Shown here: positions 31,201 to 34,200 of the stretch, piece by piece | How positions within the stretch are numbered: position 1 is the stretch's first letter | Layout of the letters: each line of letters starts with the position of its first letter | Origin: a virus | Taxonomy: Duplodnaviria; Heunggongvirae; Uroviricota; Caudoviricetes | IMG/VR virus record: IMGVR_UViG_2684622670_000009 | Location: 1 to 64,000 of that record | Length of the DNA stretch: 64,000 nt | Direction: 5' to 3' (one strand) | Program-made: the position numbers

Positions 31201-34200
31201 AGTTTTTGAGGTCGATTTGCTGAAGTCTCAGGAAATAAACCTGGATTATATCCTTGGACTGATTTTCGAACACAACAGACAAAATAAAGGCAAGGGCGAA
31301 ATGATCGAAGAGGTCAAACGCTTAATTCGTTCAAGCCTAGGGAACCGTGCTAAAGAGGGCCTGGTGGTCGATTTTATTCAGCAAACGAACCTGGATGATT
31401 TACCGGACAAAGCCAGCATCATTGACGCATTCTTTACGTTTGCTCAACGCGAACAGCAACGTGAAGCAGAAGCATTGATAAAAGAAGAAAATCTCAATGA
31501 AGAGGCAGCAAAACGCTATATTCGCACGTCTTTAAAACGCGAATATGCCACCGAAAATGGCACAGAATTAAACGAAACATTACCAAAACTTAGTCCGTTA
31601 AATCCGCAATATAAAACGAAAAAACAGGCAGTTTTCCAGAAAATCGTCTCGTTTATTGAGAAGTTTAAAGGCGTAGGCGGAAAAATATAGCCCAATTCGT
31701 GTTTTTCTTGCGGGTTCTTAATTAAACCCGCAAGAGACCGTGGGGTTCCAAATGGCTAATATACTCCCCTTACCCATGCGCGACAATGCTGCCAAAAGTG
31801 ATAGAAAACAGCCAGAAATAGATCGCGGCCATAATGATTTTGAATGCCGTGTTCATATCTTCAGCTCCTGTGATTGATTGGATACATGCCGCGCCCCTTG
31901 CGGCATGTTTTTATTTTTACCTTCTCTGCTTTAAATATCAAGATTTATTAGAGCAATTATTGCTGATAGAGAAGCGCATTTTCATACTCCCTGACCATTA
32001 ACGTAAGTACGCCGTGACTCCTGAAAACACGCGCCACTTCAATCTTATCTTCCAGCGCGAACGCAATTTTACTTAGACCAATTTTCTTCAGGAGATCAAT
32101 CTTTGCTGGACCGTCATTTCTGTCATCGGTGGCAGGACGCATAGATAGCAAAGGCTCAGCCCCATTTGTTACGTGCTTACGCAACCAGGCTCGTGTTTTA
32201 TCCCTGGCTATCTCACAGCGCCCGGTTACAAACCAGAGGGTGTAAATGCCGGACAACTGGCGCACCATATCAATAACTGGAGTGATGGGGGCATCAGTGT
32301 CACAGGCAAGGTTAAACTCGTTCCAGTGCTCTGTTAATGCACCTTTACCTGGTGGTGGAAGTAAATGCAGTCTGTCTTCAGTTGCCTCTGATATTGTTCC
32401 ATCAATATCGACTATGACGATATACGGACGTTCCTGGTGTGCGTGTTTATTGAAAATACTCAAATGCCCTCCTCATTGGACGAAAAAAATGCTGGTGGGC
32501 GCACTCCACCAGCATTAAAAGTGACACTGTAACTATCAGCGAACGTAAATAGTGCCGCCGTTCTCTTTTTCCCATGCATCGCTACGTGCATAGCAAACAT
32601 CGAGAAGTCTTCTTGCCGCAGTTTCTTCTAAACCCAATTCAACAACCAACTGCTCATGACGGCGGGTAACTACATCAAATAGGCTATGCAGCCCTTTAGT
32701 TGCCAGATCATCAATGAATTCCGGTTCGAAGGGCAGCTCTGCATCTGCCAACATAACTTCTTGCGCCCACTCAACTCGACGGACCAGTTCTGGACGGCGG
32801 CTTTCCATCTCTTTACAAATCATTTCATGGAAGAACTCTACCCAACCTTCCGGCTGGAACTCGCGGAAAATGGCCAACGGCTGGAAGTTTGGCATCAACC
32901 ATTCGTTGATTCGGATATCAATGGCATAGCCCATGTCGCAGCAGAACTGATAAGCAAAGTCCAGCTTAGAAACGATATAAGGACGTTCGTTATTAAACTC
33001 TTTAGGAGATGAGATCCCATAAGCCAGGAGGCGTGGGAAGAAGGAGATTTGCCCTAACGTCGGATGAGGTTTGCTTGCAGGGAAACGGCGCTCAGTAATG
33101 CCATACATTTCTTTCTTGAGCGTCGCAAATTTGGCATTTTCATTAACCAGCTCAGTAACCTCTGTTTTTTATTAGCAAATGCCACCCGTGCCTCGCTTGC
33201 ATCTTTAATAGCCTTTTTGAGCTGTTGGTTAAGGTCGGCGACCTGCTTACGCAGTTCCTGTCGCTCGCTTTTAGCTTTGTTATAGCGTTTCTCAAGGTTA
33301 AAAGGATCAAGTTTCATGATCTCTTTATATTGAGATTTTAGCGTTGAAATCTGTGAGTTCCGCAGTTCAACCATCGCGGTCATTTCATTGAGTTTTGTTT
33401 CCAGCTCAATGCTTATACGTTCGGCATTATCAGCACGCTGGTTGGCGTCATGCGTCGCATCGTCAATTGCGTCCTGTTGCTGGCGTTTCAAATGTTCAAT
33501 TTGCAGCTGAAGCTCTTCAATTTCTTTACCCTTCAGACCGAGGTCCAGCTGCATATTTTCAGCTGCATCTACCAGGTCATTATGGCTATCAGCCTCTGCG
33601 TTATAAACATCAATAAGCTGTGCGTGAAGCATCTCTGCTGACTGAACCGCATTATCAAAAAAACGCGCTGTGAGGTCATCACAACTAACTCGGCGTTGCG
33701 CGGCCCGGATGTTCTGGATAATGGCCGGGATACCGGCATTCAGGACGTCAGGGATAGATACATTTTCGATTGATTGGTTTTGTGCTGAAGTGTTCATTTC
33801 AAAGTTCCGTATTAGCTTGTACTTCGGTCATTTTTCCTAAGTATGAAGGAGGAAGGACTACGCAATTTGTATCCAGCCCCTCACCCAGAGCAGCCTGTAA
33901 AATTCTGGCTAAGGAGAGTCTCTTGTTGCGATACCGGGTGATGACATGCCTGATATCGCCGGACGGCGTAACAAAGGCGATCAGCCAGTAGTGATATTTC
34001 CGTCGGAATGGCCACATAGTGCACCTTATGGATTGCTCTAATAAAAAACGTGATGAGTGTACATCACGTTTTAAAAATATGGAATTATTAGAGCAATATT
34101 ATTCTGATTCTTGCTCAAAAAACGCGCTAATGAGAGGAAGCCAATCCTCTGACACTTCACGCGGTCGCGGTTTGCCGTGGAAGAAGATTATTCGGCAGTC

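Follow-up and report, generated by a model that had tools for sequence, protein, structure and literature searches.

A probable loss-of-function frameshift in pmgS within the pmgR-pmgS-pap block of a P1-like plasmid prophage

The record of phage P1 (NC_005856) describes a three-gene block consisting of pmgR (72 amino acids [aa]), pmgS (420 aa; "putative morphogenetic function; coiled-coil"), and pap (168 aa; "putative acid phosphatase"); in phage P7, the first two are named shtA and shtB, and pap keeps its name. P1 pmgR is essential, and its deletion leaves heads and tails unjoined (PMC9024508). Deletion also showed pmgR to be essential in a further study, in which pmgS and pap were nonessential by both deletion and CRISPR interference and were not needed for plaque formation (PMC10695390). 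Upstream of pmgR, the P1 annotation places two monovalent operators of the C1 repressor, OpmgRa and OpmgRb (formerly Op86a and Op86b), on either side of a predicted sigma-70 promoter, PpmgR, and notes that this site "controls expression of pmgR and pmgS." Here, we report an analysis of the corresponding locus in the tailed-phage record IMGVR_UViG_2684622670_000009 (IMG/VR; Caudoviricetes), of which positions 1 to 64,000 were analyzed (64,000 nucleotides [nt]; referred to as the window). We hold, with a probability of about 0.85, that the locus is the known pmgR-pmgS-pap block of a P1-like (Punavirus) plasmid prophage, that the loss of 1 nt from its pmgS is real, recent, and inactivating in a prophage that was already defective, and that neither programmed frameshifting nor a new arrangement of genes is involved. 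The block is the one known from P1, here with a strain-specific pseudogene.

The P1 block and the break in pmgS

The block and its lesion comprise the following features.

33799-34017, minus strand: pmgR (P7 shtA), 72 aa, intact, 93% identical to P1 PmgR; PHROG 3177
33054-33797, minus strand: 5' fragment of pmgS (P7 shtB), 247 aa
32536-33168, minus strand: 3' fragment of pmgS, frame open for 210 codons; the ATG-initiated open reading frame (ORF) within it, 32536-33108, encodes 190 aa
33164-33173, minus strand: frameshift site, reading AAUAAAAAA and then C in the window, and AAUAAAAAAGC in P1, P7, and the closest plasmid
31957-32463, minus strand: pap, 168 aa, HAD-type phosphatase of the polynucleotide kinase-phosphatase family; PHROG 415

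Across 2.7 kb, the region aligned over its full length and colinearly (95 to 97% identity) with P1, P7, SJ46, RCS47, and about 960 plasmids. The P1 counterpart is NC_005856 82152-84293, aligned in a single piece at 95 to 96% nucleotide identity. Gene order, sizes, and orientation are those of the P1 block, to which P7 shtA-shtB-pap is equivalent, and the flanks of the P1 block are also in the window (ppp-pmgQ upstream, the operator Op88 downstream). Unlike P1, the window has a 1-nt deletion in pmgS, which yields ORFs of 247 and 190 aa, and a type I hsd cassette downstream of Op88 where P1 has pmgT-humD. The closest relatives overall are P1-like plasmids of Escherichia albertii and E. coli that carry a type I hsd cassette (e.g., NZ_CP099909.1), with 97% identity over the surrounding 24 kb. 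In plasmids of the NZ_CP099909.1 type, the hsd cassette adjoins pap, as in the window; unlike the window, the E. albertii-type plasmids have an intact 420-aa PmgS (L004, 18190-19452) and a whole sheath gene. Colinearity, the flanking genes, and the inverted Op86a/b pair are thus all shared with the P1 block, and the continuous 420-aa pmgS frame is missing. Because it is a 1-nt deletion that breaks this frame, we regard the locus as a member of the P1 block with a pseudogenized pmgS.

An earlier note on this DNA, made from the sequence alone, had described four minus-strand ORFs (72, 247, 190, and 168 aa, the last HAD-like), and the ORF listing and a reading of the sequence found all four at the coordinates it gave. 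It had taken them for an uncharacterized accessory locus of unknown function between the restriction-modification system and pap. That description has to be given up: the comparison with P1 genes, which the note had itself proposed as a possible refutation, showed them to be pmgR, pmgS, and pap, which are conserved and ordinary parts of the P1 backbone. It is pap that encodes the HAD-like phosphatase, and ppp (34797-35489) had probably been mistaken for it.

Codons 1 to 211 of the 247-aa ORF are authentic pmgS (aligned to P1 residues 1 to 211) and cover the N-terminal helices and the long coiled coil; 36 out-of-frame codons and a stop follow. What the 3' fragment encodes, a small beta/alpha domain with an (HhH)2 domain at the C terminus, is 98% identical to intact PmgS. 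Alignment and an indel census identified the missing nucleotide as one G between 33165 and 33164, after the A6 run. In short form, AAAAAAGCAG in relatives corresponds to AAAAAACAG in the window; in a longer alignment, AAUAAAAAAGCAGAGG in the P1/P7 relatives corresponds to AAUAAAAAACAGAGG. Among the matches listed in 141-nt searches, every plasmid or E. coli genome match spans at least one base more than the query, and when one base is inserted behind the A6 run, the product is 420 aa long and colinear with P1 PmgS. The 55-nt overlap of the 247- and 190-aa ORFs (33054-33108) was correctly noted before, as was the downstream frame that stays open back to 33168, within the run AAUAAAAAA at 33165-33173. 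It had also been proposed that one extra A would fuse the ORFs into a protein of about 420 aa; one added base does restore 420 aa, but the base lost is the G after the run, and there was no contraction from A7 to A6. Translation from the pmgS of the window would end after 211 authentic and 36 junk residues, and the C-terminal half of PmgS (globular and (HhH)2 domains) would not be made, or would be made only in trace amounts via slippage or internal initiation.

Origin and age of the break

The window corresponds to NCBI contig BBVP01000027.1 (assembly GCA_001514785.1). The exact 247-aa and 190-aa products are encoded there and again in the Logan assembly made independently from the reads of DRR017161. 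Since the same broken ORFs appear in the latter, the split is not an assembler artifact, and the assembly error that the earlier note had named as a possible cause is not borne out. The indel census, in which the window was compared with the closest plasmid and with P1, found no more than five indels in the 17.9 kb that are colinear (28315-46185), and no long reading frame is interrupted by any but the one in pmgS; the idea of homopolymer errors throughout the sequence was therefore rejected. For pmgS with its frame repaired, the ratio of nonsynonymous to synonymous substitution rates (dN/dS) against P1, P7, and the E. albertii plasmid was 0.05 to 0.12 upstream of the break and 0.05 to 0.08 downstream. 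The lesion appears recent, because dN/dS is equally low on both sides and the downstream protein still matches intact PmgS so closely.

A second gene of the element is also broken. Tail-sheath gene 22 (61164-62743, plus strand) has a 10-nt deletion at about 61857, between the direct repeats TCGCTGGCG and TCACTGGCG, and is left as fragments of 254 aa (61164-61928) and 273 aa (61922-62743). In P1 and the closest plasmid, the gene is intact at about 529 aa (1,590-nt annotated coding sequence; 540-codon open frame). The Logan assembly of DRR017161 has the same deletion and the same truncated ORF, and a deletion of this length is not a homopolymer miscall. Because the sheath gene is broken as well as pmgS, the element looks like a defective, decaying prophage kept as a plasmid, and it is probably unable to make tails.

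A sequencing or consensus error, with the extra base present in the true sequence and pmgS intact, is in our view unlikely. It would suit a lesion that abuts a homopolymer, a pmgS frame that runs on past the break without further stops or excess amino acid changes, and an extra base found in all relatives examined. However, the independent assembly of the reads yields the same ORFs, the base lost is a G after a run whose own length is unaltered, the remaining homopolymers of the surrounding 18 kb of coding sequence are without frameshifts, and the second inactivating lesion, in the sheath gene, is both reproduced and no homopolymer miscall. Programmed recoding, in which the A6 run would make the ribosome slip by −1, or cause transcriptional slippage, and so fuse the ORFs as a regulated feature, is exceedingly improbable. 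The shift needed is indeed −1, its place would be a pair of lysine codons, AAA-AAA, at which slippage occurs readily in E. coli (dnaX), and an indel at the equivalent A-run is found in a second lineage. Yet about 9 in 10 of the evenly sampled P1-like plasmids encode one continuous pmgS ORF, the cluster of intact 420-aa PmgS holds 2,600 member sequences, and none of the PmgS homologues with 71%, 53%, and 27% identity is split. The zero frame, AAU-AAA-AAA-CAG, offers the heptamer U-AAA-AAA and not the canonical X-XXY-YYZ. No stimulatory RNA structure was detected in the 82 nt downstream of the A6 run (minimum free energy, −15.3 kcal/mol versus a shuffled mean of −15.4; z = 0.03), and six A's make a short run for efficient transcriptional slippage. 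Programmed frameshifting is thus unsupported, given that there is no stimulatory structure and that the split is not conserved in relatives, and a dnaX-like −1 frameshift was rejected on heptamer, downstream structure, and conservation alike. A −1 slip on the two AAA lysine codons may permit a trace of read-through, as leakiness and not by design.

Broken pmgS alleles recur. The protein database holds four others of 247 to 248 aa, shifted at about aa 160, 168, 179, and 186 and all into the same alternative frame, and one allele in a lineage at 62% identity is shifted at the equivalent A-run; independent pmgS frameshift alleles number at least six, two of them at the same A-run. For a survey of PLSDB, 60 of 738 matches were taken at even spacing, and 54 of these were P1-like plasmids, among which about 5 (~9%) had a pmgS split into two or three parts or carrying an IS1 insertion. 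With these alleles and plasmids on record, the broken pmgS of the window is not unusual. Intact pmgS copies have a dN/dS of about 0.05. It is conceivable, though we give the idea very little credence, that PmgS is a DNA- or partner-binding coiled-coil factor acting via its (HhH)2 domain, that its inactivation in plasmid-resident elements is selected and not neutral, and that the A-run is even a leaky, reversible on/off switch. Just as doubtful is an uncharacterized accessory or anti-defense module, a role that the earlier note had considered plausible. PmgS has no assigned function and is strongly conserved (dN/dS of about 0.05), although P1 can do without it in the laboratory; Pap is similar to the phosphatase half of the T4 polynucleotide kinase-phosphatase, a counter-defense enzyme that repairs RNA; and a type I restriction-modification cassette adjoins the block. 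However, the genes belong to the fixed backbone of P1, P7, and distant relatives and are not variable cargo, and pmgR, in conserved pairing with pmgS, is a virion-assembly gene. The hsd cassette took the place of other P1 genes (pmgT-humD), which makes its adjacency a secondary matter. Antirestriction was unchanged in 24 P1 knockouts without a plaquing defect (PMC9024508), which, together with the nonessentiality of pmgS and pap (PMC10695390), speaks against the suggestion.

Four points weigh against a real, recent, and inactivating loss in a C1-controlled block. The Logan and NCBI assemblies share one read set, so that a systematic read error at the site is possible. An equally low downstream dN/dS would also be expected if the C-terminal half were still expressed and selected. 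Purifying selection on PmgS is strong family-wide, and "dispensable" is valid only for laboratory plaque assays. C1 repression of PpmgR, finally, is drawn from the P1 annotation and operator identity.

The proteins and their control region

Pap matched the Pfam profile HAD_PNKP (PF25109) with 44.1 bits (E value, 3e-11; curated cutoff, 27.6 bits) and has the motif VDIDGT (DxDxT) at residues 18 to 23 of the translated ORF. A HAD phosphatase domain with a DxDxT motif is shared with polynucleotide kinase-phosphatases of the T4 type; unlike T4 Pnkp, Pap has no 5'-kinase domain (profile searches with the 168 aa matched the phosphatase domain alone) and is dispensable in P1.

PmgS had no match in the Pfam search, and its only significant family match was PHROG 1660 ("PmgS-like"). 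In the AlphaFold model (predicted local distance difference test score [pLDDT], 77), helices at the N terminus precede two very long ones (residues 41-160 and 166-232), after which come a small beta/alpha domain and, at the C terminus, a helical domain whose modeled five-helix fold was superposable on known (HhH)2 domains by structure comparison. The domains compared were (HhH)2/SAM-like five-helix domains, namely the N-terminal domain of RAD51/RAD51C, NusA AR1/AR2, and the C-terminal domain of RNA polymerase alpha. By profile, PF14520 was a weak match on a PmgS homologue with 27% identity (P0088), and matches of the PmgS C terminus to PDB profiles were marginal (E values, 0.2 to 0.4). Matches of PmgS in Pfam, NCBIfam, and PDB to SMC, TPR, the coiled coil of tail needle gp26, and the like were set aside as coiled-coil noise and not homology. 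PmgS is thus predicted, from its model, to be a coiled-coil protein with an (HhH)2 domain at its C-terminal end, which is a small new point. Unlike the (HhH)2 proteins with which it was compared, it has a coiled-coil hairpin of about 190 residues and a beta/alpha domain without a structural match.

Full-length PmgS-like proteins with 20 to 23% identity are encoded on Citrobacter freundii plasmid NZ_CP114569.1 (L012, 4953-6254) and on Shigella and E. coli plasmids, and these genes adjoin DarB-like methylase and VRR-NUC genes in other phage-plasmids. One such protein, a distant plasmid homologue, is labeled "RNA polymerase alpha C-terminal domain-containing" by NCBI, which agrees with the predicted (HhH)2 fold.

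In relatives whose PmgS is 53% and 27% identical, a pmgR-like gene (73 to 75 aa) lies immediately upstream of the pmgS homologue; the PmgR proteins of these two are 49% and 34% identical, and pap is present in one of the two. As the adjacency is kept at such distances, we consider pmgR-pmgS a conserved pair. We infer that PmgS is either an auxiliary partner in the head-completion step of PmgR or a DNA- or partner-binding factor; in this strain, the frameshift would deprive it of its globular and (HhH)2 domains.

Sequence features linked to control in and around the block are as follows.

34081-34097, minus strand: C1 operator OpmgRa (former Op86a), ATTGCTCTAATAATTCC, from an operator scan and the P1 annotation via a 100% identical alignment
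34032-34048, plus strand: C1 operator OpmgRb (former Op86b), inverted relative to OpmgRa
34045-34055 and 34062-34072, minus strand: palindrome AAAACGTGATG-N6-CATCACGTTTT with 11-nt arms, between the operators, followed by a T-run
34091-34096, inside OpmgRa: predicted −35 element of PpmgR, TTGCTC (P1 annotation)
34068-34073, overlapping the 5' arm of the palindrome: predicted −10 element of PpmgR, TAAAAC (P1 annotation)
32488-32516, minus strand: intrinsic-terminator-like hairpin (11-bp stem, then TTTTT) between pmgS and pap
31941-31957, minus strand: C1 operator OpmgT (former Op88), ATTGCTCTAATAAATCT, overlapping the pap stop codon (operator scan and P1 annotation)

The two inverted operators flanking a palindrome (34032-34097), reported in the earlier note, are present and are the OpmgRa and OpmgRb of P1. 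Their 13-nt cores (ATTGCTCTAATAA) are perfect inverted complements, and OpmgRa begins 2 nt past the pmgQ stop codon. Operator-like matches in the whole window numbered 17, versus 0.27 expected by chance. The 80-nt control region, which extends from the stop codon of pmgQ to the end of Op86b, has the same sequence in P1, P7, and the closest plasmid (100% identity); the coding DNA that flanks it has diverged by about 4%. PpmgR, predicted in the P1 annotation, was not among the promoters listed by a sigma-70 promoter scan. The palindrome and its T-run (34045-34072) are, by their sequence, probably the terminator of the upstream ppp-pmgQ transcript; since the predicted −10 element overlaps the 5' arm, transcripts from PpmgR would lack that arm and so read on. 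C1 repression of PpmgR is expected from operator identity, the P1 annotation, and the presence of c1 in the window. In a lysogen, C1 bound at Op86a/b would occlude PpmgR and keep pmgR and pmgS off, and on induction both would be transcribed.

The strong terminator-like hairpin at 32488-32516 separates pmgS from pap, which may therefore be only partly cotranscribed, so that pap may be transcribed by read-through or from a promoter of its own. A single four-ORF operon would have a terminator-free gap at this point, and the hairpin occupies it. The "C1-repressed operon" of the earlier note is accordingly retained in part: the two C1 operators, a control region identical to that of P1 and P7, and c1 in the window agree with it, but a single four-ORF unit is uncertain, given the hairpin before pap and a P1 note by which Op86a covers pmgR and pmgS only.

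Surroundings of the block and implications

Neighboring genes are as follows.

34099-34800: pmgQ, upstream of the block
34797-35489: ppp, upstream of the block
28574-31690, plus strand: hsdR of the type I hsd cassette (R, S, and M genes), which lies between pap/Op88 and phd-doc
17696-18547: c1 repressor gene, 283 aa, in the same window

The junction of the hsd cassette with P1-homologous DNA lies at about 31766, beyond which P1 pmgT-humD is replaced. In the P1 annotation, Op88/OpmgT controls pmgT, and this target is among the genes replaced by the cassette in the window. The same annotation describes flanks homologous to the EcoDXXI and R124 hsd loci.

Downstream of pap, a GC-rich hairpin (31884-31908) has a loop 2 nt longer (CC) than in P1 and the closest plasmid, one of the five indels in 18 kb. 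Past this hairpin, downstream of Op88 and before hairpin-like repeats near 31700-31750, lies a hydrophobic ORF of 28 codons (31770-31856, minus strand; MNTAFKIIMAAIYFWLFSITFGSIVAHG) with an AGGAG ribosome-binding site; it is unannotated in the P1 reference, and its match in phage SJ46 is labeled "membrane protein." Elsewhere, the ORF at 13627-14304 (minus strand) has 1-nt deletions relative to the E. albertii plasmid at 14273 and 14302, 29 nt apart; both fall close to the 5' end of this ORF, the homologue of a hypothetical gene (L004, 38829-39581; 250 aa), and its N terminus may be shorter or altered as a result. A dmt-like methyltransferase frame (47715-51005, minus strand) runs for 1,096 codons from stop to stop, versus 755 in P1, and resembles a Dam-family gene of about 1,013 aa in the E. 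albertii plasmid; on the strength of this resemblance, we consider it a divergent or mosaic allele.

The locus can be annotated as pmgR, pmgS (pseudogene, frameshifted), and pap, with the operators labeled as P1 Op86a/b, and annotators should treat the element as probably a defective prophage living as a plasmid. For the biology of P1, pmgS is broken in about 1 in 10 sequenced P1-like plasmids despite strong purifying selection on the intact copies, and its product, which has a predicted (HhH)2 end, forms with pmgR a pair conserved down to 27 to 34% identity.

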